Positions 3,998 through 60,257 of a stretch of 64,000 nt of DNA are shown piece by piece. Under the pieces are notes generated by a model. The model did not search any database, was not told where the DNA came from, and worked only from the letters and a program-made list of their open reading frames with translations. Source of the stretch: Candidatus Saccharibacteria bacterium RIFCSPHIGHO2_12_FULL_41_12 (lineage in GTDB: Bacteria > Patescibacteriota > Saccharimonadia > Saccharimonadales > 2-12-FULL-41-12); assembly GCA_001790445.1 (NCBI GenBank), contig MGCQ01000008.1:26676-90675 (forward strand), given 5' to 3'. The position numbers and the translations under genes were made by a program. How positions within the stretch are numbered: position 1 is the stretch's first letter; each line of letters starts with the position of its first letter.

Positions 3998-4381
3998 ATG
4001 ATAAACTTCTTAAATATCTTTAACTTTTTTGCAGCCAGCGGAGAAACACCTGCAGAAGTGGCTTGTCAAAAAGGTAGCTTTTTTGCCTTCCCTACTTGGT
4101 ATAAATATCTAGAGGTGGATACGAATTATTGCAACCCAAAGATAGACAATATCAATGACATTTGGTTGATAATGCTGGCAATAGTCGAAATTTTGATTCG
4201 GCTTGGAGTGATTTTGGCTATTATCTTTATAATTTATGGGGGCGTAAGTTTAATAATGGCTCGTGGCATTCCAGAAAAAGTTAACTCGGCTCGTGACATG
4301 ATTATAGATGCTATAACAGGACTTGTTATTGGTCTGGTGGCTATAACGTTGATCAGTTTCTTGGGGAAGAGTTTTGGTTAA
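3998..4381 (+). CDS. VirB2/TrbC-topology pilin-like protein, paralogue 2 (127 aa)
   Basis: Short hydrophobic N-terminus, a 2-Cys ectodomain, then TM1-loop-TM2 (ILAIIFIIYGGVSLIMARGIPEKVNSARDMIIDAITGLVIGLVAITLISF). Confidence 0.55.
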   Translation: MINFLNIFNFFAASGETPAEVACQKGSFFAFPTWYKYLEVDTNYCNPKIDNINDIWLIMLAIVEILIRLGVILAIIFIIYGGVSLIMARGIPEKVNSARDMIIDAITGLVIGLVAITLISFLGKSFG

Positions 4382-4382
4382 G

Positions 4383-4700
4383 ATGTTGGACAAGATAAAT
4401 TTTTTCATACTAGCAATTAGCAAACCTATAAACTGTGAAAGTGGCGCCAATTGTCAAACAACCCTTCCCGAAATAAAAGCCACAGACGCAACTGCAGAGA
4501 AGATATTTGGAATTATTTTTGGCACTATTGCTGCAGTAGCAATACTTATAATTGTGCTGTCAGCGCTGAACTGGGCGATTCGGGGTGGCGACCCAGAAGT
4601 TATTACTCGCTCCCGAAAAGCCATAATCTATGCAGTCGTTGGGCTTGCTATTGCTCTACTTTCTGAAACGTTGGTACTAACGCTCCTGAACAGGGTATAA
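4383..4700 (+). CDS. VirB2/TrbC-topology pilin-like protein, paralogue 3 (~105 aa)
   Basis: The track ORF starts at TTG 4374, overlapping the upstream stop, so I prefer ATG 4383 (MLDKINFFILAIS). It has a 2-Cys segment (NCESGANC) followed by TM1-GGDPEVITRSRK-TM2. Confidence 0.55.
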   Translation: MLDKINFFILAISKPINCESGANCQTTLPEIKATDATAEKIFGIIFGTIAAVAILIIVLSALNWAIRGGDPEVITRSRKAIIYAVVGLAIALLSETLVLTLLNRV

Positions 4701-4701
4701 A

Positions 4702-5109
4702 ATGAAAAAACCCTTACTCATATTAATTATTACGCCGATATTATTGATTTTTTTGCAAGCCTCCGCCCAAGCTGTAGATCTATTCAGGAATAACTGTAAT
4801 GGATCTGCCGCAGACTCAGCCGTTTGTAAGGACAAAAAAGCTGTAGAAAAAGCAGATGCGTCAAAGAATGAAGATAACCCGATATTTGGTCCAAACGGCA
4901 TAATAACTATAATTACAAATATTTTGTCAGCGGTGGTCGCTATAGGGGCAGTTATATCAATTGTTTATGCTGGCATGAAATTGATTTTTTCGGGGTCTAA
5001 TCCTCAAGAAGCAAACAGTGCCCGTGAGAGGATTATCTATGCATGTGTGGCTTTAGTGTTTGTTGCACTAGCCCAGATAATAGTCAGGTTTGTTATCAAT
5101 AGGTTATAA
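4702..5109 (+). CDS. VirB2/TrbC-topology pilin-like protein, paralogue 4 (135 aa)
   Basis: Signal peptide (LLILIITPILLIFLQASAQA), a 2-Cys ectodomain, then TM1-SGSNPQEANSARER-TM2. Confidence 0.6.
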   Translation: MKKPLLILIITPILLIFLQASAQAVDLFRNNCNGSAADSAVCKDKKAVEKADASKNEDNPIFGPNGIITIITNILSAVVAIGAVISIVYAGMKLIFSGSNPQEANSARERIIYACVALVFVALAQIIVRFVINRL

Positions 5110-5121
5110 TCGGTAGTAAAT

Positions 5122-5526
5122 ATGACAAAAACATTAATTACAAAGATATTACTTGCAACCCTGCTTTTAGTCGGAGTCTTCCAATATTCTGCAAATGTGC
5201 CGGTCTTTGCCCTAATAGGCTCTGGTTCTAAAGAACAAGCTTGTAAAGGTGCAGAGCTTGATAATGCAACAGGGGCAAATTGTGGTGAAAAGGCCAGTTC
5301 AGATACACAAAAAATATTGGAAAGTGTGATAAATATCATGTCGGCTGTTGGTGCTGTGATTGCTGTGCTGGTAATCATCGTCAATGGGATCAAATTGGTC
5401 CTGTCTTCTGGAGATTCTGCCAGAGTTAACACCGCTCGTTCAGGAATAATTATGGCGGTAGTTGGGCTGATTGTCATTGCCCTTGCGCAGACTTTAGTTA
5501 AATTTATTATCAACAGGGTGGGTTGA
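5122..5526 (+). CDS. VirB2/TrbC-topology pilin-like protein, paralogue 5 (134 aa)
   Basis: Signal-like N-terminus, a 2-Cys loop (ACKGAELDNATGANC), then TM1-SSGDSARVNTARS-TM2. Confidence 0.6.
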   Translation: MTKTLITKILLATLLLVGVFQYSANVPVFALIGSGSKEQACKGAELDNATGANCGEKASSDTQKILESVINIMSAVGAVIAVLVIIVNGIKLVLSSGDSARVNTARSGIIMAVVGLIVIALAQTLVKFIINRVG

Positions 5527-5585
5527 TGAGTGTGCAAAGTTGTGCTATAAAGTAATTAGAATATAACAAAAGGAAACCAAAGAAA

Positions 5586-5999
5586 ATGAGAAAATTTATT
5601 AGACAAATAGTTACCACATTAGCACTGGCTACTGTCATGTTAACACCAGCACTAGCGACAACTTCAGTATTTGCGGCTGACATAGACAAGAGCCTTTGCA
5701 AAGGGGCTGAACTGAAGCTTAGTGGAGAAGGAGATTGCTCAACGACTGAAGCAGCAGGAACAGGTTTAGACAAATTGATAACAGATGTTGTTAACATATT
5801 TTCCGTAATTGTCGGCGTAGTAGCCGTAATAATGATCATCTACGGTGGTTTCCGCTATATCACTTCAGGTGGGGACTCTGGTAACGTTACTACTGCAAAA
5901 AACACTATTCTCTACGCTCTTGTCGGGCTTGTCATAGTTGCCTTGGCGCAGTTTATCGTAAAGTTTGTACTGAGCAAGGCCACTGGGCTCGGCGACTAA
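5586..5999 (+). CDS. VirB2/TrbC-topology pilin-like protein, paralogue 6 (137 aa)
   Basis: AAGGA ribosome-binding site. Signal peptide ending VFAADI, a 2-Cys loop (LCKGAELKLSGEGDC), and the C-terminal hairpin NIFSVIVGVVAVIMIIYGGFRYITSGGDSGNVTTAKNTILYALVGLVIVALAQFIVKFV. Confidence 0.6.
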   Translation: MRKFIRQIVTTLALATVMLTPALATTSVFAADIDKSLCKGAELKLSGEGDCSTTEAAGTGLDKLITDVVNIFSVIVGVVAVIMIIYGGFRYITSGGDSGNVTTAKNTILYALVGLVIVALAQFIVKFVLSKATGLGD

Positions 6000-6010
6000 G
6001 GTTTGCAAAG

Positions 6011-6445
6011 ATGAAAACTAAAATATTTTCGTTCGTATTTGGGCTGAGCCTTCTCGTCTCGTTTGCAGGTGCCATGAATACCAGTACTGTTCTAGCAGAT
6101 TCTAAAAGTGAACTTTGCAGTGGCGCAAACTTTGATATAAGTGGTGGTAGCGATGCAGGTTGTGATGGTAAATCTGCCTGTGAAGACGACCCATCTAAAG
6201 CAAATTGTCCGGCAGGCAAGCTAAATACCCTGATCAACAATATAGTTAACATTTTATCTGTAATTGTCGGTGTTGCTGCCGTAATTATGATCATTTATGG
6301 CGGGTTTAGGTACGTTACTTCTGGGGGCGACTCTGGCAATTTGACTACAGCGAAAAACACCATACTCTACGCTCTCGTCGGGCTTGTTGTGGTTGCCTTG
6401 GCGCAGGTGATCGTTAAGTTTGTGATTAACAAAGCCAGTTTTTGA
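6011..6445 (+). CDS. VirB2/TrbC-topology pilin-like protein, paralogue 7 (144 aa, 4 Cys)
   Basis: AAGG ribosome-binding site, a signal peptide and a 4-Cys ectodomain. The C-terminal hairpin is nearly identical in protein sequence to paralogues 6 and 8. Confidence 0.6.
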   Translation: MKTKIFSFVFGLSLLVSFAGAMNTSTVLADSKSELCSGANFDISGGSDAGCDGKSACEDDPSKANCPAGKLNTLINNIVNILSVIVGVAAVIMIIYGGFRYVTSGGDSGNLTTAKNTILYALVGLVVVALAQVIVKFVINKASF

Positions 6446-6489
6446 AGCCGAGACTTTGAAGTCTCTCTCAGTCTATGGTATAAATTAGT

Positions 6490-6906
6490 ATGATGAGACT
6501 TTTGATGTACTCACTGGCTAGCGTGTCCCTGTTTTTGGCTTTTTTCTCACCAGTATTTCTATCCTCAAGCGTTTACGCAGCAGATATCTCGAATAATCTT
6601 TGTAAAGGAGCGGACTTGCGGTTTAGTGGCAATGCAAACTGTGCCGATACCACTAAAGATTCCAGCGCCAAGCTAGACAAGCTGGTAACCGACATAGTCA
6701 ATATATTTTCTGTCATTGTCGGTGTAGTCGCAGTGATCATGATTATTTATGGCGGATTTCGCTACATTATTTCTGGTGGAGACTCTAGCAATGTCACCAA
6801 TGCGAAAAACACCATACTCTACGCTCTCGTCGGGTTAGTCGTAGTCGCTTTGGCGCAGTTTATCGTAAAGTTCGTACTGAGCAAGGCCACTGGGCTTGGG
6901 GTTTAA
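6490..6906 (+). CDS. VirB2/TrbC-topology pilin-like protein, paralogue 8 (138 aa)
   Basis: Signal peptide ending VYAADI and a 2-Cys loop (LCKGADLRFSGNANC). The last ~50 nt of coding DNA differ from paralogue 6 at only one position. It is preceded by a small hairpin (gagactttgaagtctc) and a TGgTATAAA extended -10-like box. Confidence 0.6.
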   Translation: MMRLLMYSLASVSLFLAFFSPVFLSSSVYAADISNNLCKGADLRFSGNANCADTTKDSSAKLDKLVTDIVNIFSVIVGVVAVIMIIYGGFRYIISGGDSSNVTNAKNTILYALVGLVVVALAQFIVKFVLSKATGLGV

Positions 6907-7069
6907 CTCGACTTACGCAAATCTCCACACTCTCAAACTCTCCAGATGAGTCCAGAACCCCTTTTTCTGATGTCACCACACCTACCAGGTGTGCTTCCAC
7001 CAGAGAAAAGAACTTCTAAATCTCCTCTGGAAGATTCTGGAGAATGCGGAGATTTGCGTAAGTCGAGTT
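6905..7069. repeat. 165-bp long-hairpin repeat, copy 1 (MITE-like or structured RNA)
   Basis: The termini aactcgacttacgcaaatctcc and ggagatttgcgtaagtcgagtt are reverse complements, and the interior also pairs (tctccaga/tctggaga, ctttttctg/cagagaaaag, apex cacacct-acc-aggtgtg). The element is ~96% identical to 49158-49322 and begins inside the stop codon of pilin paralogue 8. Confidence 0.85.
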
Positions 7070-8484: not shown

Positions 8485-8577
8485 TGGCGGAGAGAGAGGG
8501 ATTCGAACCCTCGCGGGAGATTTCTCCCCCCTAGCAATTTAGCAAACTGCCCCCTTCAGCCACTTGGGTACCTCTCC
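8485..8577 (-). tRNA. tRNA-Ser (anticodon GCT), class II with long variable arm, CCA encoded
   Basis: Minus-strand reading ggagaggtacccaagtggctgaaggggcagtTTGCTAAattgc...gagggttcgaatccctctctctccgcca. The acceptor stem pairs 7/7 (one G-U), the anticodon stem is gcagt/attgc with loop TTGCTAA, and the T-arm is canonical. Confidence 0.9.
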
Positions 8578-8659
8578 AATTTTTTTCTGGCTCAAACAAC
8601 ATTATAACAGATACAGAACAGTTTATGTGTATTTTTTTCAACAGAAAAAGGTTAAAATA

Positions 8660-9160
8660 ATGGTTATGGATACCGAAGATAATCCCCAGGGGCAAAAGTC
8701 AGCTCAACCTATTTCATGGACGGCTTCAGAATTTGCCAATGGGCATAAAGACGTAGTTTGGTATTCAAGTTTTATAGCAGCTTTGCTGGTAATTTGTGGG
8801 TTGATTTTTGCGATTACTAATGATCTTATGGCAACAGTTGCTATTTTTGTAGCGGGGTTGCTTTTTCTAGCCATGGCAGTCAAAAAACCACGTTCATTGC
8901 AATATTCAATTGACGAAAAGGGGCTGAATATTGGCGATAAATTTTATGGTTTTTTATCTTTTAAATCATTTAATTTAGTCCACAGCAACGGGATAACAAG
9001 TATCGATTTTATCCCCATGAAAAGATTCGCAACAGAAATATCTATTTTTTTGCCCCCAGACCAAGGTCAGGAAATTCTTGACGTGATAGCCAAACACCTG
9101 CCCCACGATGAACGAGACGAGAACAAGATTGATAAATGGACCAAAAAGCTTAAATTTTAA
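8660..9160 (+). CDS. membrane protein, two TM helices followed by a small soluble domain (YdbS/bPH-like topology, tentative)
   Basis: The track ORF from 8564 overlaps tRNA-Ser, so I take the in-frame ATG at 8660 (MVMDTEDNPQ). Two adjacent TM helices are followed by ~100 aa of soluble sequence. Confidence 0.45.
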   Translation: MVMDTEDNPQGQKSAQPISWTASEFANGHKDVVWYSSFIAALLVICGLIFAITNDLMATVAIFVAGLLFLAMAVKKPRSLQYSIDEKGLNIGDKFYGFLSFKSFNLVHSNGITSIDFIPMKRFATEISIFLPPDQGQEILDVIAKHLPHDERDENKIDKWTKKLKF

Positions 9161-9201
9161 TCGAGTAATCACCTCTGTTATAATAATGTAGTCATAATTG
9201 A

Positions 9202-9278
9202 GCACCCGTAGCTCAGCTGGATAGAGCGTCGGCTTGCGGAGCCGAAGGTCGTAGGTTCAAATCCTGTCGGGTGTACCA
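9202..9278 (+). tRNA. tRNA-Arg (anticodon GCG), CCA encoded
   Basis: gcacccg-ta-gctcagctggatagagc-g-tcggc-TTGCGGA-gccga-aggtc-gtagg-ttcaaat-cctgt-cgggtgt-acca. The cloverleaf fits, with a G1-U72 wobble and two G-U pairs in the T-stem. Confidence 0.8.
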
Positions 9279-13516: not shown

Positions 13517-13606
13517 GGAAGGGTGTCCGAGTGGTTTAAGGAAACGGTCTTGAAAACCGTCGTGTCGGAAACGATACCGTGGGTTCGAATCCCACCCCTT
13601 CCGCCA
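13517..13606 (+). tRNA. tRNA-Ser (anticodon TGA), class II, CCA encoded
   Basis: ggaagggtgtccgagtggtttaaggaaacggtCTTGAAAaccgt...gtgggttcgaatcccaccccttccgcca. The anticodon loop is CTTGAAA and a long variable arm is present. Confidence 0.9.
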
Positions 13607-13713
13607 AGCACAAGCCCTGATTTTTCGGGGTTTTTGCTTTTATTGTAAGTCTCAAGAGGTTTAACCAATATCCCACCCTCTAACTTTTAATTGAAGTATA
13701 ATGAATCTAGTGT

Positions 13714-13805
13714 GGAGAGGTGGCCGAGTGGTTGAAGGCGCTGCTCTCGAAAAGCAGTATGTGGGGCAACTCATATCGAGGGTTCGAATCCCTCCCTCTC
13801 CGCCA
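13714..13805 (+). tRNA. tRNA-Ser (anticodon CGA), class II, CCA encoded
   Basis: ggagaggtggccgagtggttgaaggcgctgctCTCGAAAagcag...cgagggttcgaatccctccctctccgcca. The anticodon loop is CTCGAAA. Confidence 0.9.
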
Positions 13806-21068: not shown

Positions 21069-21353
21069 ATGAGTGATTATGCCATAATAAATTTAAAGAC
21101 TGACCCCAAGCTTAAAGCCCAGGCAGCCAAAACTGCCAACAAACTAGGGATTAGCATCAGTGCGGTTCTGAACAATGAGCTAAGGCGTTTTGCCACAGAA
21201 CAAAGTGTGGTTTTTGACTTACCTGAGTCTCCCAACCCACTTACCGAGGAGTTGCTTAAATCTTCAAAGAAACAGATTGATCAAGGCGATTATCACAAGT
21301 TTAACACCAACAAACAAGCTATCGACTTCCTGACCAAAGAGTTAAATGGATAG
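21069..21353 (+). CDS. RelB/DinJ-family antitoxin
   Basis: MSDYAIINLKTDPKLKAQAAKTANKLGISISAVLNNELRRFA (ribbon-helix-helix DinJ pattern), directly upstream of a YafQ-like toxin. The track start at 21033 coincides with the -35 box. Confidence 0.75.
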   Translation: MSDYAIINLKTDPKLKAQAAKTANKLGISISAVLNNELRRFATEQSVVFDLPESPNPLTEELLKSSKKQIDQGDYHKFNTNKQAIDFLTKELNG

Positions 21354-21367
21354 ATTTTTGCCTGCAA

Positions 21368-21625
21368 ATGACAATATCTTACACAAAAAACTTCATCAAA
21401 CAATCAAAAAAGCTCGACTCTAAACAACGAGCTAAGCTGATATCTCGGATCGAGCTTTATTCTGATAAGCCTGTTAGTCCCCTGCTTCGTGACCATGCTC
21501 TTAAGGGCAAATACAAGAATTACCGTAGTATAGATATTTCGGGTGACATGCGCGCGTTGTATCTGTTGAGTAAGAACGAAGCGATATTTGATATCGTCGG
21601 AACGCACAGCCAACTCTACGGCTAA
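21368..21625 (+). CDS. YafQ/RelE-family mRNA interferase toxin
   Basis: LRDHALKGKYKNYRSIDISGDMRALY...IVGTHSQLYG is the typical YafQ signature. Confidence 0.8.
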   Translation: MTISYTKNFIKQSKKLDSKQRAKLISRIELYSDKPVSPLLRDHALKGKYKNYRSIDISGDMRALYLLSKNEAIFDIVGTHSQLYG

Positions 21626-22542: not shown

Positions 22543-23046
22543 TTGCGCTAAAGCCTCCAAGGAGGCTTTTATCACCTTACTTTTTCTCACTAGCAAGAAA
22601 AAGTAAGCAAAAAGTGCCACCCCGGTGATCAAAAACTGCCCTAAGATTAAATAACTACAAACATACTATTCTTCCGGGACTCCTTCCAGTCGGGGACAAG
22701 CCCTGGTCCTCAGAATAATCTGTCTGTAGCCATTTAATCTAAAGGTGTTTTGACCAAGGGGACATTAAGCGGTCTAAAGTCATAATTAATAATATTTCCT
22801 ACGGAAATATACAAGGGAAGCTTGGGTCAGGCCTTGAGCAGACCTGAGAGATTTCGTCGAGATTACAACTATCAGACGAGGACTGTTTGAATGACCAAAG
22901 GGAGAGAGTTCCGCAGTCTGTTGTAATCTTCGACAAGAAATCACTTCAAGTCTGTTCAACCGCCTGCTACTTCTTTGCATACTTTCTTGTTAGCACAAGA
23001 AAGTATGGTGTATCAGGCCCTATTGGGCCGACGCAATGCATTTTTT
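22543..23046 (+). repeat. ~510-bp structured intergenic repeat, copy A (full length)
   Basis: Shares end modules and long internal blocks with 29667-30176 and 57033-57550, and its 3' half matches the reverse complement of 41217-41465. Modules: outer ttgcg...cgcaa, terminator-like GC hairpins, 12-bp sub-terminal hairpins, and apical hairpin atatttcc-tac-ggaaatat at 22791-22809. Confidence 0.9.
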
Positions 23047-29666: not shown

Positions 29667-30176
29667 TTGCGATTGCGCTAAAGCCTCCAAGGAGGCTTTT
29701 ATCACCTTACTTTTTCTCTCTAGCAAGAAAAAGTAAGCAAAAAGTGCTACCCCAGTGATCAAAACAAACCCTGAACCTACAAGACAACAGACAAGACTAT
29801 TCTTCCGGGACTCCTTTTAGTCGCCCCGCCTGAAGGCGGGGTAGTCCTCAGAATAATCTGTCTGTAGCTTTGTAGTTCCAAGGTGTTTTGACCAGGGGGA
29901 TATTAAACAGTCTAAAGTCATAATTAATAATATTTTCTATGAAAATATACAGATTGATAGTCAGGCCTTGAACAGACCTGAGAGACTACGTCAAGATCAC
30001 AACTATTAGACGAGGACTGTTTGACCCCGCCTAAAGGCGGGGGAGTTCCGCAGTCTGTTGTGACCCTTGACCGGTAGTCCCATCAAGTTTGTTCAATCGC
30101 CTGCTACTTCTTTGCATACTTTCTTGTTAGCACAAGAAAGTATGGTGATTAAAAGCCTGCAGGGCTTTAATCGCAA
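29667..30176 (+). repeat. ~510-bp structured intergenic repeat, copy B (full length)
   Basis: The outer closing pair cattgcga (29665-29672) / tcgcaatg (30171-30178). It has the same end modules as copy A and carries two ccccgcc-NNNN-ggcgggg hairpins (29824-29841, 30025-30043) at positions where copy A has other sequence. Confidence 0.9.
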
Positions 30177-41216: not shown

Positions 41217-41465
41217 TTGCCATCCCGCAGTGGCGGGACTGATGCAACATACTTTCTTGTGTTGACAAGAAAGTATGCAAAGAAACAACAGGCGGTTGAA
41301 CAGACTTGATGGGATTTCTTGTCGAGTATTACAACAGACTGCGGAACTCTCTCCCTTTGGTCGTTCAAACAGTCCTCGTCTGATAGTTGTAATCTCGACG
41401 AAATCTCTCAGGTCTGCTCAAGGCCTGACCAACAATCTGTATATTCCCGTAAGCAATATAGATTT
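41217..41465 (-). repeat. ~510-bp repeat family, copy C: inverted, 3'-half only
   Basis: This is the reverse complement of the 3' half of copy A, from the sub-terminal hairpin catactttcttg...caagaaagtatg through ...ctcaggtctgctcaaggcctgacc to the apical region. The terminal GC hairpin is replaced by tcccgc-agtg-gcggga. The 5' half is absent. Confidence 0.85.
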
Positions 41466-41522
41466 GGGATCAGATGTTGAGCAGACCTAAAAGGATAATG
41501 TTTGAATTTTCAATATCATTTT

Positions 41523-41629: not shown

Positions 41630-41866
41630 ATGAGTTATGATTATACAATTACTTCAAAGGGACAGATTACTTTACCCAAAAAACTGAGAGATACGGTAGG
41701 GCTTAAGACAGGTAGTCATGCGAATATTTCCTTGCTAGATAATAGAACAATTATTATTAGGGCTCCTCTGGGCATTGAAGAAATTCGTAAAAAGATTGGT
41801 GCTCCGGCTAACGATCAACCTCTGACAAAAAAAGAAAGCTCCAGATTAAAAGCAAGAGGTCTTTAG
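41630..41866 (+). CDS. AbrB/SpoVT-domain antitoxin (VapB/MazE-like)
   Basis: ITSKGQITLPKKLRDTVGLKTG swapped-hairpin motif, immediately upstream of a PIN-domain gene. Confidence 0.75.
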   Translation: MSYDYTITSKGQITLPKKLRDTVGLKTGSHANISLLDNRTIIIRAPLGIEEIRKKIGAPANDQPLTKKESSRLKARGL

Positions 41867-41872
41867 CCAAAA

Positions 41873-42247
41873 ATGACGATAATCGATGCGAATTACATAT
41901 TGAGATGGTTTTTGAATGACGATGTGGATCAAGCAACTTTTGTGAGAGATTTGATTATCAATTCTGGCTCCAAGACGCTACTTGTAGATAGAATCACGAT
42001 TGCCGAGGTGACATATGTGCTTAGGTCAATGAAGTATAATCATCAACAGATATATGAACTTTTTGAAGAACTTTGTTATTACCCAAGCTTATTGCCCCTA
42101 GGGGAGATAGAGGGTATGGCACTAGATATTTACAGAGATACAAATCTGGACTTTGAAGATGCAACACTGGTTGCAAATGCGAAGATAAACAATTATAAAT
42201 TGGGCACTTTTGACAAAAAAATGATTAATTTGCTGAAGAGTTTATAG
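41873..42247 (+). CDS. PIN-domain ribonuclease toxin (VapC-like)
   Basis: IIDANYILRWF (first acidic residue) ... EVTYVL ... FEDATLVANA pattern. 124 aa. Confidence 0.7.
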   Translation: MTIIDANYILRWFLNDDVDQATFVRDLIINSGSKTLLVDRITIAEVTYVLRSMKYNHQQIYELFEELCYYPSLLPLGEIEGMALDIYRDTNLDFEDATLVANAKINNYKLGTFDKKMINLLKSL

Positions 42248-49157: not shown

Positions 49158-49322
49158 TACTCGACTTACGCAAAATCTCCACACTCTCAAACTCTCCAGA
49201 TGAGCCTAGAACTCCTTTTTCTGATGTCACCACACCTACGGGTGTGCTTCCACCAGAGAAAAGAACTTCTAAATCTCCTCTGGAAGATTCTGGAGAATGC
49301 GGAGATTTGCGTAAGTCGAGTA
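49158..49322. repeat. 165-bp long-hairpin repeat, copy 2
   Basis: About 96% identical to 6905-7069. All differences fall in the 5' arm or apex (an extra a at gcaaaatc, gagcctagaactcc versus gagtccagaacccc, and ctacgggtg versus ctaccaggtg). The 3' arm is identical. Confidence 0.85.
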
Positions 49323-57018: not shown

Positions 57019-57032
57019 ACAACTTTAGCTTC

Positions 57033-57550
57033 TTGCGCTAAGCCCTTGGCAGGGCTTTTATCACCTTACTTTTTCTCTATAGCAAGAAAAAGTAAGCAAA
57101 AAGTGCCACCCCAGTGATCAAAACAAACCCTGAACCTACAAGACAACAGACAAGACTATTCTTGCGGGACTCCTTCCAGTCGGGTCTAAAGACCTAGTCC
57201 TCAGAATAATCTGTCTGTAGCTTTGTATCTCCAAGGTGTTTTAATCAAGGGGATAATAAGCAGTCTAAAGTATTTAACCACTGTGTTTTCCTCCAGAAAA
57301 CACAGATTATTATGATCTAACTGCTTTTGAACCAGGCCTTTGAATAACTGATGAAATATCTATTCAAGCAACGCCATGTTTTGAGGACTACCCCGCCTTC
57401 AGGCGGGGCGACCAAAGGGAGTCCCGGAAAAACTGGGTTGGTTGGATAGATATTTCAATCATGTTACTTCAATAGCCTGCTATTTCTTTGCATACTTTCT
57501 TGTTAGCACAAGAAAGTATGGTGATTGAAAGCCAAAGGCTTTAATCGCAA
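57033..57550 (+). repeat. ~510-bp structured intergenic repeat, copy D (full length, divergent 3' half)
   Basis: The left 220 nt are nearly identical to copy B. The central apical hairpin is replaced by ctgtgttttc-ctcca-gaaaacacag. The 3' arm is largely different but retains a ccccgcc-ttca-ggcgggg hairpin (57391-57408), the sub-terminal hairpin and the terminal aaagcc-aaa-ggcttt hairpin. Confidence 0.88.
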
Positions 57551-57608: not shown

Positions 57609-60257
57609 ATGGCGACGGAGAGGAAGAAGCTAGTCATAATTGACGGCAAAAGTGTGTTTTACAGAGGGTATTATGCTATGGGTAGCCTTACCACTAAGGA
57701 TGGTAAGCCAACCGGCGGAGTGTACGGTTTTGCTACGATGGCGCTGGAAGTTATCAATAGACTGAGTCCTGATTATGTTGCAATTGCTTGGGACAAGCCA
57801 AAGACCAATATTCGCAAAAGAAGAGAACTTTATCCTGACTACAAAATCCACCGCAAGCCTGCGCCCCCAGATTTTTACGAACAAATACCGATGTTACATG
57901 AGCTGCTTGATTCTTTTGGCTGGCCACTTTACGAGCTAGACGATTACGAGGCAGACGATATTATGGGGGCTTTGGCGGTGCAGGCGAAAAAGGCTAATAT
58001 CGAGACTTTATTGATCACGTCCGATCTTGATATGCTACAGCTAATAAATACTCATGTCCATGTCTATGCTCTTAAAAAGGGACTCAGCAATATTGAGCTA
58101 TTTCATCCAGAATCTTTTGAAGCAAAATACGGTATTAGAGTTGATCAATACCTAGACCTTAAGAGTTTGAAAGGCGACAGCTCTGATAACATTCCTGGTG
58201 TTCCCGGAGTTGGCGAAAAGACCGCCCTGAAACTAATTGAGGAATATGAAACTCTCGATAATGTATATAAAAATCTCCCAAATATTAATGAAACTACGCG
58301 CAAGAAACTGGCTGCGGGCAAGGAATTGGCCTATTTGAGTAAACAATTAGCTCACATATGGATTGATGCTCCAATAAAGCTTAATCTTGACGAGGTAGAC
58401 GGGAGGCATATTAAACCCGATAAGGTCATTGAACTACTGACAAAACTCGAGTTTAGAACTTTAGCGAATAAAGCCAAAGATGTGTTAGATATCAGTGAGT
58501 CAGACATGCCTGGAATGACATTTGCGGAGCATTCAGGAGAAGTTGTCAGAATCAATACAAGCAATAAAGCAAAAGCAGTCTTAGTATCACAAATTGCCAA
58601 TGTAGATAATATTTTTGTTCAAACCAGAGTTCAAGACAATCTTGGCAAGAGCCTGAAGGCGTTAATTGTTAACATAGACGCAAAACAGACGTATATAATT
58701 GATCCTAAATTGCTGGAGGATACTTCGTTTATTGCTAGTCTTTTTAGCAAAAAGTCGCAGGTAATCGGTTACGATTTAAAGCCACTGATTAAAGTTATGA
58801 TCAATCGCGGTATAGATCTTCCGCCAAGTTTATTTGATCTTAAAATAGCTGCTTTTTTATATAATTCCCTTGAGAGAGATCTCTCCGTGAGCGGTATGGC
58901 GAAAAGTTATTTAAACTGGCAGGGGCCAGAACTTGATAACCTTGATATTTCAGAACTGGAGGCTTTGGCTGGAGAAATCATGCAAGTAATACGTGGTTTG
59001 TACTCATATTTTCAAATAGATTTTGGCAAAAGCCCAGAAATCAAAAAAATCGCCAAAGAAATTGAGATGCCGATGATTCCAATTTTAGCTGCAATGGAAA
59101 TTCATGGTATAGCCCTGGACACAGATTATCTTAGAAAACTCGGGGATCAACTAACGGACAAACTAAGTGACATTGAGCAGGAAATCTATGGTTACGCAGA
59201 CGAAGAATTCAATATAAATAGCCCGAAGCAACTGGCTGATATTCTCTTTGAAAAACTTGCTCTCCCAACTGCGGGGGTAAAAAAGGGCAAAACAGGCTAT
59301 AGCACAGCGGCAGGAGAGCTGACCAAGCTTAAATTCGCACATCCAATTATTGAGTTAATCCAAAACCACAGGGAAATGTCGAAACTGATGAATACTTATG
59401 TTAATACTTTGCCTGATCAAGTTGACGAAGATGGTCGAGTACATACCAATTTTAGTCTCACTACTGCACAGACAGGGCGCCTTAGCTCAAATGACCCTAA
59501 TTTACAGAATATACCTACCAAAACAGAGCTAGGTAACCAAGTTCGTAGGGCGTTTAGGGCCCCCGGCGGCAGATCGTTTGTTAGCGCAGATTATAGTCAA
59601 TTCGAGCTGAGAATAGCAGCATTTTTGGCTGGCGACAAAGACATGATAGAGGTTTTTAATGATGATATAGATATTCACATGGCAACAGCTATGCAGATAT
59701 ATGGTAGGAATGAAGATGATATCACCAAAACAATGAGGCGTGATGCAAAAGTTATTAATTTTGGCGTTTTATATGGCATGAGTCCGCACGGTCTTTCAGA
59801 AGCAACAGGCATGACTATCGTTATGGCAAAAGACTATATTGACAAGTATTTCGTGGTTAGAAAACCATTGCAGGGATACCTAGAATCCTTAAAAGAACAA
59901 GCTCGTACCAAAGGCTATGTGGCTACATATTTTGGTAGAAGACGTTATACTCCAGATGTGCTTTCTAGCAATTTTATTGTTCGCTCTGCTGCTGAGCGAG
60001 CAGCTATCAACATGCCGATACAAGGCACAGCTTCTGACATAATGAAAATCGCTATGCTCAAAGTACAAAAAAAGTTAGAGAAATTTACCGATACTCACAT
60101 GCTTCTGCAAATTCATGACTCGCTTATTGTAGAAGTACCAACCAAGGATGCAGAGCAGATAGCGAAATTGATCAAAGAGACCATGGAAAATGCAGTGAAA
60201 TTAGATGTTAAAATCACCGTAGATACCGCAATAGCCGACAACTGGGCCGACCTTTAA
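57609..60257 (+). CDS. polA: DNA polymerase I
   Basis: N-terminal 5'-3' exonuclease (LVIIDGKSVFYRGYYA...), HhH GDSSDNIPGVPGVGEKTA, and polymerase motifs A (SADYSQFELRI), B (RRDAKVINFGVLYG) and C (LQIHDSLIVE). Confidence 0.93.
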   Translation: MATERKKLVIIDGKSVFYRGYYAMGSLTTKDGKPTGGVYGFATMALEVINRLSPDYVAIAWDKPKTNIRKRRELYPDYKIHRKPAPPDFYEQIPMLHELLDSFGWPLYELDDYEADDIMGALAVQAKKANIETLLITSDLDMLQLINTHVHVYALKKGLSNIELFHPESFEAKYGIRVDQYLDLKSLKGDSSDNIPGVPGVGEKTALKLIEEYETLDNVYKNLPNINETTRKKLAAGKELAYLSKQLAHIWIDAPIKLNLDEVDGRHIKPDKVIELLTKLEFRTLANKAKDVLDISESDMPGMTFAEHSGEVVRINTSNKAKAVLVSQIANVDNIFVQTRVQDNLGKSLKALIVNIDAKQTYIIDPKLLEDTSFIASLFSKKSQVIGYDLKPLIKVMINRGIDLPPSLFDLKIAAFLYNSLERDLSVSGMAKSYLNWQGPELDNLDISELEALAGEIMQVIRGLYSYFQIDFGKSPEIKKIAKEIEMPMIPILAAMEIHGIALDTDYLRKLGDQLTDKLSDIEQEIYGYADEEFNINSPKQLADILFEKLALPTAGVKKGKTGYSTAAGELTKLKFAHPIIELIQNHREMSKLMNTYVNTLPDQVDEDGRVHTNFSLTTAQTGRLSSNDPNLQNIPTKTELGNQVRRAFRAPGGRSFVSADYSQFELRIAAFLAGDKDMIEVFNDDIDIHMATAMQIYGRNEDDITKTMRRDAKVINFGVLYGMSPHGLSEATGMTIVMAKDYIDKYFVVRKPLQGYLESLKEQARTKGYVATYFGRRRYTPDVLSSNFIVRSAAERAAINMPIQGTASDIMKIAMLKVQKKLEKFTDTHMLLQIHDSLIVEVPTKDAEQIAKLIKETMENAVKLDVKITVDTAIADNWADL

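Follow-up and report, generated by a model that had tools for sequence, protein, structure and literature searches.

A family of two-fold symmetric foldback repeats in a Saccharibacteria genome, probably mobile DNA, with a recombinant member

A stretch of 64,000 nucleotides of contig MGCQ01000008.1 from Candidatus Saccharibacteria bacterium RIFCSPHIGHO2_12_FULL_41_12 (assembly GCA_001790445.1), referred to here as the window, contains several copies of a non-coding repeat of about 500 bp. We analyzed one of these, copy D, which an earlier note made from the sequence letters had described as a repeat that shares its ends and 5' arm with copy B and has a largely replaced centre and 3' arm. Our preferred interpretation, to which we assign a probability of roughly 0.55, is that the repeats are an undescribed family of non-autonomous, two-fold symmetric foldback mobile DNA elements and that D is a recombinant member of it. 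The best-supported account is that the repeats were gained in one Saccharibacteria lineage and spread between genes, that their hairpin arms and apex motif are under constraint, and that their modules have been exchanged.

Each element is a heterodimer of two equivalent halves, which lie in inverted orientation and meet at a short central hairpin. Going inward from the tip, each half has a terminal inverted repeat containing a small G+C-rich hairpin, then an A+T-rich sub-terminal hairpin, and then an arm of about 145 nt. The stem of the arm is free to vary; the apex holds a conserved asymmetric core, in which CGGRACTC is followed by about 10 unpaired nucleotides, a mini-hairpin that varies, and GTCCTC. 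The terminal inverted repeats, TTGCGC..TATCACC and GGTGATT..ATCGCAA, are about 33 nt long. A family profile search of the window identified three full copies, 495-518 bp in length, and one half copy (Table 1). The longest open reading frame (ORF) in D is 32 aa, and no reading frame is conserved among the copies.

The left part of D was compared with copy B and proved nearly identical to it, as had been claimed, with a match of about 240 nt and 96% identity over 57053-57182 (130 nt). Counted in blocks of 40 alignment columns, identity is 31-40/40 up to D position 57263, falls to 18-24/40 at 57264-57449, and is restored to 31-39/40 from 57450, where D rejoins the family at the sub-terminal hairpin. 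The final string common to B and D, caaggggataataagcagtctaaagt, lies at 57246-57271. The individual motifs that the earlier note had named were also located, namely the 10-bp hairpin ctgtgttttc/gaaaacacag (57281-57305), the ccccgcc-ttca-ggcgggg hairpin of the 3' arm (57391-57408), ggagtcccgg (57418-57427) and gcgggactcc (57164-57173). The motif searches gave no matches in 100 shuffles, which excludes chance.

The interpretation of some of these motifs had to be revised. The central hairpin, thought to be new in D, is instead a homologue of the central hairpin of A and B that differs by two A:T to G:C double changes and an extension (B, ATATTTTC/GAAAATAT; D, GTGTTTTC/GAAAACAC). Pairing of the 5' arm with the 3' arm was rejected, since self-folding of each arm gives far better complementarity; each arm is a hairpin in its own right, and one is an inverted counterpart of the other. 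This inversion, by which the right-arm apex repeats the left-arm apex in reverse orientation, accounts for the complementarity of ggagtcccgg and gcgggactcc. Nor is variable cargo supported, as the replaced segment is another arm of the same kind and D contains no ORF longer than 32 aa.

Copy D forms a very stable fold, with z = -13.3 as RNA and -13.6 as DNA. In the minimum-energy folds of A, B and D, pairing is within arms and not between them, and the order is a sub-terminal hairpin, the left arm, the short central hairpin, the right arm and the second sub-terminal hairpin. The terminal closing region of the fold consists either of the two ends paired together or of a small hairpin at each end. 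Hairpin loop positions are nearly equal across the three copies; those of D lie near 48, 156, 261, 367 and 473, as in A and B. The proposal of a modular replacement with retained fold topology was therefore upheld, and the likeness of D to A and B extends well past the ends.

Full-length alignment of the element to its own reverse complement gave approximately 71% identity in both B and D, with scores of 192 (B) and 152 (D) compared to 17-19 ± 8-9 in shuffles. The two halves are therefore diverged inverted copies of each other. The reverse strand of D also matches the family profile over positions 7-280 (E = 3.5e-15), and the right-arm apex of D, when inverted, is 92.6% identical over 54 nt to the left-arm apex of B (B 128-181). 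Within this apex, CCCCGCC-TTCA-GGCGGGG (57391-57408) is the exact reverse complement of CCCCGCC-TGAA-GGCGGGG in B, the apex loop TTCA of D being the reverse complement of the B loop TGAA. The stem of the D right (gamma) arm is unrelated in sequence to the right arm of A, B or C. The stem of the left terminal hairpin of D is likewise unlike that of A and B (GCCTCC/GGAGGC), with pairing retained.

The family is known from five contigs, and about 80 kb of the host genome was examined. A search with the arm-apex pattern found L008 and L010, both on a single 35.8-kb contig, and L009, all three from JGI metagenomes; the pattern also matches one contig of a Saccharimonadales metagenome-assembled genome (MAG), L011. 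Matches in genomes of 69% G+C (L012-L014) were discarded as chance. With L008, L009 and L010, further variants of the D type are thus at hand. L009 combines an A-like left half (93%) with a D-like centre and a right arm that has a different stem and an inverted alpha-type apex. In L008, the gamma arm of D (85%) stands on the opposite side of the element and is joined to a new three-hairpin end and an A/B-type beta arm. In L010, the gamma arm (88%) has a normal sub-terminal hairpin and is joined to an insertion-bearing beta arm and an L008-type end.

The half types seen are end1+alpha, end2+beta, end2+gamma, end2+delta, end3+gamma and end3+beta'. Two different halves are combined in 6/6 two-half elements: A and B are 1alpha+2beta, D is 1alpha+2gamma, L009 is 1alpha+2delta, L008 is 3gamma+2beta and L010 is 2gamma+3beta'. 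The apical mini-hairpins (CCCCGCC..GGCGGGG, GGTCT..GACC, GGC..GCC and others) are common to different arm types. As the D-type arm and the D-like centre occur in other combinations on other Saccharibacteria contigs, the ends, arms, apical hairpins and centres are exchangeable modules. The notion that a mini-hairpin is a tiny insertion with an AGTC duplication was rejected because the beta arms do not fit it. The insertion in the beta-arm apex of L010 (300-400; about 50-60 nt by eye) is itself hairpin-forming (GGCTTCTGGCT..AGCCAGAAG), and arms can therefore grow through nested palindromic insertions.

Other searches for copies were negative. The right sub-terminal hairpin had 0 exact matches in collections of viral, genome and metagenome sequences, and the apex, beta-apex and left sub-terminal patterns had 0 matches in viral contigs. 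The whole element had no match in phage and plasmid collections, and no further copy was found in the approximately 10 kb to the left of the window. The spurious ORFs within the element, used as protein queries, yielded no candidate copies, and seven exact ORFs were absent from the collection. Literature searches on miniature inverted-repeat transposable elements (MITEs) or palindromic repeats in Saccharibacteria and Patescibacteria gave no title that describes such an element.

We next consider the constraint on the arms. Across 14 arms, the columns CGG.ACTC and GTCCTC are invariant (core CGGRACTC...GTCCTC), and the stems vary and covary while this apex core stays fixed. The helix GGGACT/AGTCCT is sequence-invariant and shows no covariation. 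The apex-proximal helix just below it contains 22 doubly changed cells compared to 7.3 ± 2.3 in shuffles (0/500 reach this value), far above shifted-partner controls as well. Variable columns are concentrated at unpaired positions in alpha arms (12/84 paired and 47/85 unpaired), gamma arms (14/108 and 30/60) and beta arms (27/100 and 38/64). In alignments made per arm class, 14 pairs are altered on both sides with pairing kept; at columns 42/127 of the gamma-arm alignment, D has A:T, L010 the intermediate C:T, and L008 C:G. We used per-class alignments since bulges put the arm classes out of register with one another, so that RNAalifold on a MAFFT alignment of all arms recovered no helix but the apex-proximal one.

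When folded individually (13/14 arms), the 12 arms of the window family form long hairpins with z = -3.4 to -7.7. In L011 the identical apex core sits at the tip of a shorter and wholly different stem (z = -1.4 over 150 nt). The span of CGGRACTC..GTCCTC is 36-48 nt and varies with the mini-hairpin, and this variable spacing suggests that a folded strand, rather than a B-form duplex, would be what is read. A K-turn at the apex was rejected, as no tandem G.A pairs are apparent in the sequence.

The same features could belong to large structured non-coding RNA genes, and the earlier note had considered a structured RNA family. In such a case the transcript would be the whole element of about 500 nt, or an RNA of about 250 nt from each half on opposite strands, and its apex loop would serve as the binding site of a protein or a second RNA, for instance via CUCCUU (forward) or AAGGAG (reverse), which resemble anti-Shine-Dalgarno and Shine-Dalgarno motifs as strings of letters. 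We regard this explanation as unlikely. It accounts well for the very stable fold (z = -13), for covarying stems and an invariant apex core in 14 arms including a distant MAG, and for variable columns at unpaired positions, and to that extent the RNA proposal stood. The strand tests spoke against it. Over 14 apex-oriented arms, G:U wobbles number 54 in the forward and 60 in the reverse direction, so neither orientation is favoured, whether for single, convergent or divergent transcripts. Folding energies of the two strands are equal once G:U pairs are disallowed. When such pairs are permitted, the larger gain falls to the minus strand in A, B and D; it comes from the alpha arms only, which have 6-10 G:U pairs in the minus-strand fold compared to 3-4 and so speak for a transcript. 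The halves, moreover, occur in either position and with several ends, which is hard to fit to one fixed transcript.

Signals of transcription gave a similar result. No conserved promoter was found among the copies, and the terminal hairpins were not called in a terminator scan. Rfam 15 gave no gathering-threshold match on the element, the only such matches in the window being four tRNAs; in a search of D and B at E<10, the best scores were 12-22 bits, against thresholds of 38-90. A hammerhead or other ribozyme was rejected, as the CTGATGA in the gamma arm has no support from any Rfam model. A group II intron, suggested by TTGCG termini that resemble GUGYG and by a nearby reverse transcriptase, was also rejected: no Rfam intron model matches, the element is palindromic, and the reverse transcriptase locus is unlinked to it in sequence. 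An RNA gene is further opposed by the presence of 3.5 copies per 64 kb of a small genome, one of them truncated, and by orthologous sites that are empty in relatives. The absence of strand bias, of a conserved promoter and of an Rfam match, together with the empty sites, is better explained by folded or palindromic mobile DNA.

A second, unrelated repeat in the window (6919-7068 and 49173-49321; 96-100% identity) forms a near-perfect hairpin of about 137 nt. Its minus strand folds at -75.6 kcal/mol and its plus strand at -49.4 kcal/mol (z -8.9 and -5.1), with G:U pairs abundant on one strand, as is characteristic of a strand-specific RNA hairpin. The strand test is therefore able to detect a bias.

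The copies in the window are all intergenic and lie next to housekeeping genes (those for TsaD, a response regulator, AdoMet decarboxylase, inositol monophosphatase and PolA), and copies on other contigs have purine-synthesis genes and TopA as neighbours. Copies A and B are located between convergent genes and D begins 14 nt past the upstream stop codon; L008, L009 and L011 are found at gene 5' ends or between divergent genes. The polA product downstream of D (57609-60257) has its best named relatives in Candidatus Saccharimonadales/Saccharibacteria. In two sister genomes, L004 (Logan SRR13076525) and L006 (GCA_964349495.1), PolA is 75% identical and gene order is the same, and the inositol-monophosphatase stop and the polA start are 43 bp apart compared to 590 bp, including D, in the window. 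A profile search of 62 kb from sister relatives found no copy. Similarly, L011 has a copy ahead of topA where two relatives (TopA 73-74% identical to that of L011; three contigs) have none, which means that this copy is no conserved leader. In independent assemblies of the genome to which the window belongs, contigs break within copies (L001, L003, L019 and L020).

Several observations weigh against mobile DNA as the explanation. No transposase, RAYT, HUH enzyme or recombinase gene, and no gene enclosed by ends like those of the repeat, was found in the approximately 80 kb examined or in the flanks of the other copies; Pfam annotation covered window positions 1-34129 and from about 49.2 kb on, with about 10 kb to the left and 6 kb to the right beyond the window, and the middle was spot-checked. 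No direct repeat indicative of target-site duplication flanks A, B, D or L008, the junctions being inexact and a same-species empty site lacking. The copies are diverged (70-96% identity), unlike the near-identical burst of recently active MITEs, and the family is seen on five contigs only. Taken alone, the alpha arms have a minus-strand fold that is 12-19 kcal/mol more stable than that of the plus strand. An apex motif that is conserved while the stems are otherwise free and change in compensatory fashion would be expected of a functional RNA too. In addition, the 14 arms are mutually related, so covariation counts are inflated by shared ancestry and the shuffle controls overstate their significance, and intrastrand templated repair can keep the two sides of a palindrome matched without selection.

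If the repeats are mobile DNA, an enzyme encoded elsewhere would move or copy them by recognizing the folded strand. Its target may be the sequence-invariant apex helix and loop, the terminal repeats, or both, and by analogy its action would resemble that of RAYTs on REPINs or of IS200/IS605 TnpA on insertion sequence (IS) hairpins. Copies would then diversify through recombination or gene conversion at the centre, arms and apices, a process suggested by the module pattern described above. Copy D could have arisen through fusion of a B-like left half with a gamma-arm right half, the junction lying at the central hairpin or immediately to its left; the apex of the gamma arm may subsequently have been converted by a B-type left apex or may share recent ancestry with it. 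More speculatively, the repeats may be substrates of a novel structure-specific Saccharibacteria enzyme for DNA (or RNA) that reads the apex motif on a folded strand. They would then represent either a new class of hairpin-guided element or a bidirectionally transcribed large RNA with the same protein-binding loop on both of its arms; we offer this only as a tentative and rather improbable idea. If true, either form would be a previously unseen system of the Candidate Phyla Radiation (CPR) and not a decayed ordinary MITE.

The elements might instead serve the host, with the end hairpins stopping incoming transcription and the arms stabilizing mRNAs or binding a nucleoid protein, and be kept by host selection, in the way suggested for REP/BIME, ERIC and Correia repeats once these had spread. 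A TTTT follows each terminal hairpin, reading inward (AAAGCCTCC..GGAGGCTTTTAT at the left on the + strand, with its counterpart at the right on the - strand), the stems of the terminal hairpins vary among copies and still pair, and the positions of A, B and D relative to the ends of genes would suit termination. Those of L008, L009 and L011 would not, however, and no terminal hairpin was called by the terminator scan. An element of 500 bp with two 145-nt arms and a conserved apex core also exceeds the needs of termination. A host role leaves the origin of the copies unexplained and is compatible with, rather than opposed to, a mobile origin, and as an explanation we consider it quite unlikely.

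A site for site-specific recombination of folded DNA, in the manner of integron attC or phage attP, with crossover at the centre and cargo between the halves, would agree with the exchange of halves at or near the central hairpin, with the solo half C abutting a toxin-antitoxin pair, and with structure kept while sequence varies as in attC, but we judge it very improbable, as there is no second half beyond that pair or elsewhere in the window, no integrase or recombinase gene was found nearby, no genes are seen between two halves, and arms and apices are shuffled too, so that exchange is not confined to the centre.

Table 1. Repeat copies in the window and component parts of copy D.
Feature	Position in window	Strand	Description
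Copy A	22543-23037	+	halves end1+alpha / end2+beta
Copy B	29673-30176	+	halves end1+alpha / end2+beta; nearest relative of the D left half
Copy C	~41217-41477	-	truncated solo right half: centre remnant, beta arm, end2
Copy D	57033-57550	+	518 bp; left end1+alpha, D-type centre, right end2+gamma
D left terminal inverted repeat	57033..57065	+	TTGCGC..TATCACC; contains hairpin AAGCCCT-TGGC-AGGGCTT, 57040-57057
D left sub-terminal hairpin	57065..57096	+	CTTACTTTTTCT/AGAAAAAGTAAG
D left (alpha) arm	57109..57252	+	self-folding hairpin, ~50 pairs, ~90% identity to B
D alpha-arm apex core	57165..57202	+	CGGGACTCC-TTCCAGTCG-[GGTC TAAA GACC]-TAGTCCTC
D central domain	57258..57326		closing helix AAGCAGT/ACTGCTT enclosing 10-bp hairpin 57281-57305, the dyad centre of the element
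D right (gamma) arm	57332..57480	-	near-perfect hairpin, 59 pairs
D gamma-arm apex core	57383..57426	-	inverted copy of the alpha-type apex
D right sub-terminal hairpin	57491..57520	+	CATACTTTCTTGT/ACAAGAAAGTATG
D right terminal inverted repeat	57520..57550	+	GGTGATT..AATCGCAA; contains hairpin AAAGCC-AAA-GGCTTT, 57528-57542

The outer boundaries of the copies show additional features. At the left terminus of B (29667-29678), the terminal TTGCG(A) is tandemly duplicated, and the 8 nt just outside the left end (CATTGCGA) are the reverse complement of B's own right terminus. The sequence TTAGCTTC is found directly outside the left TTGCGC in D (57025-57032), L008 (2926-2934) and L009 (899-906) and not in A or B; it may represent an additional outer module or else a sequence favoured as a target.

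Other loci near the copies were also noted. Copy C adjoins a MazE/PIN toxin-antitoxin pair (41630-42247), a RelB/YafQ pair (21069-21625) lies about 0.9 kb upstream of A, and two more YafQ-type pairs are located to the left of the window. About 1-4.7 kb past the right window end (L002 15825-19505) is a gene for a 321-aa reverse transcriptase that is group-II-intron-like, with RT and UG17 as its best PADLOC models, preceded by genes for 655-aa and 83-aa proteins of unknown function. This three-gene block is absent from both sister genomes that lack D, and no sequence link to the repeat was found. An array of seven type IV secretion system pilin paralogues (PF18895) extends over window positions 3998-6906 and L015 15519-22220, and its last three genes explain a 455-nt tandem repeat at 5767-6906. 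Type IV secretion genes (PrgI, TraC-like, VirB4/TraG-like ATPase and amidase) are found just left of the window. The four tRNA genes, in 8485-9278 and 13517-13805 (Ser-GCT, Arg-GCG, Ser-TGA and Ser-CGA), are the sole Rfam/ARAGORN matches in the window.

Saccharibacteria and other CPR bacteria have small genomes with few repeats, which have received little study. A 500-bp repeat that occurs several times per 64 kb breaks assemblies, as seen in Logan and ENA contigs, and may be mistaken for an RNA gene. Module shuffling and an invariant apex on free stems across species point to a specific protein partner. Identifying this partner would show how DNA moves in these bacteria, and the partner could prove to be a new enzyme that reads hairpins. 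Should the elements be transcribed, on the other hand, they would rank with the largest structured RNAs so far known from the phylum.

In comparison with known systems, the repeat resembles the large RNAs OLE, GOLLD, ROOL and HEARO/omega RNA in its length of about 500 nt, its very stable multi-hairpin fold and its covarying stems. It differs from them in being palindromic, without an Rfam match and without strand bias, and those RNAs do not typically occur several times in 64 kb, in truncated form or with empty sites in relatives. With attC it shares an imperfect palindrome, conservation of structure over sequence, and asymmetric unpaired bases, attC being recombined as a folded single strand. 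However, attC sites are 57-141 bp long, with R and L boxes, gene cassettes and the IntI integrase, whereas the repeat is about 500 bp, has housekeeping neighbours and no integrase was found (R and L boxes were not formally searched).

Elements of the IS200/IS605 family and PATEs are similar in their sub-terminal hairpins, in showing no target-site duplication and in having non-autonomous derivatives; they are recognized as folded single-stranded DNA, as we propose for the repeat. The ends of IS200/IS605 are asymmetric, strand-specific and without terminal inverted repeats, whereas the repeat is two-fold symmetric with inverted termini of about 33 nt and no strand bias; no TnpA or TnpB gene lies nearby, and Rfam models of the associated RNAs were unmatched. 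Bacterial MITEs (Correia/NEMIS, ERIC, RUP and Nezha) are also non-coding, shorter than about 1 kb and bounded by terminal inverted repeats, and like the repeat they are dispersed between genes, fold into long hairpins and are present or absent between related genomes. For the repeat, unlike these, target-site duplication was not seen, nor was a parent IS sharing its ends in the approximately 80 kb or the flanks of other copies. Its inverted symmetry spans the whole element and not only the tips, its most conserved part is the arm apex in the middle of each half rather than the termini, and its copies are mosaics of exchangeable modules instead of being near-identical.

The last comparison is with REPINs. 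These are about 60-120 nt long, are built of 20-40-nt REP units with a GTAG foot, and occur with RAYT in gamma-proteobacteria and others. The repeat is about 500 bp, with units of about 250 bp, five to seven hairpins, three end types and long variable arms; its core is CGGRACTC..GTCCTC with no GTAG foot, and no RAYT gene was seen in about 80 kb. Like REPINs and REP-BIMEs, it is non-coding, intergenic, multi-copy, confined to a lineage and without visible target-site duplication. As in REPINs, two inverted units fold into a hairpin, hence the strands are equivalent, and the folded single strand is thought to be read by an enzyme encoded elsewhere.

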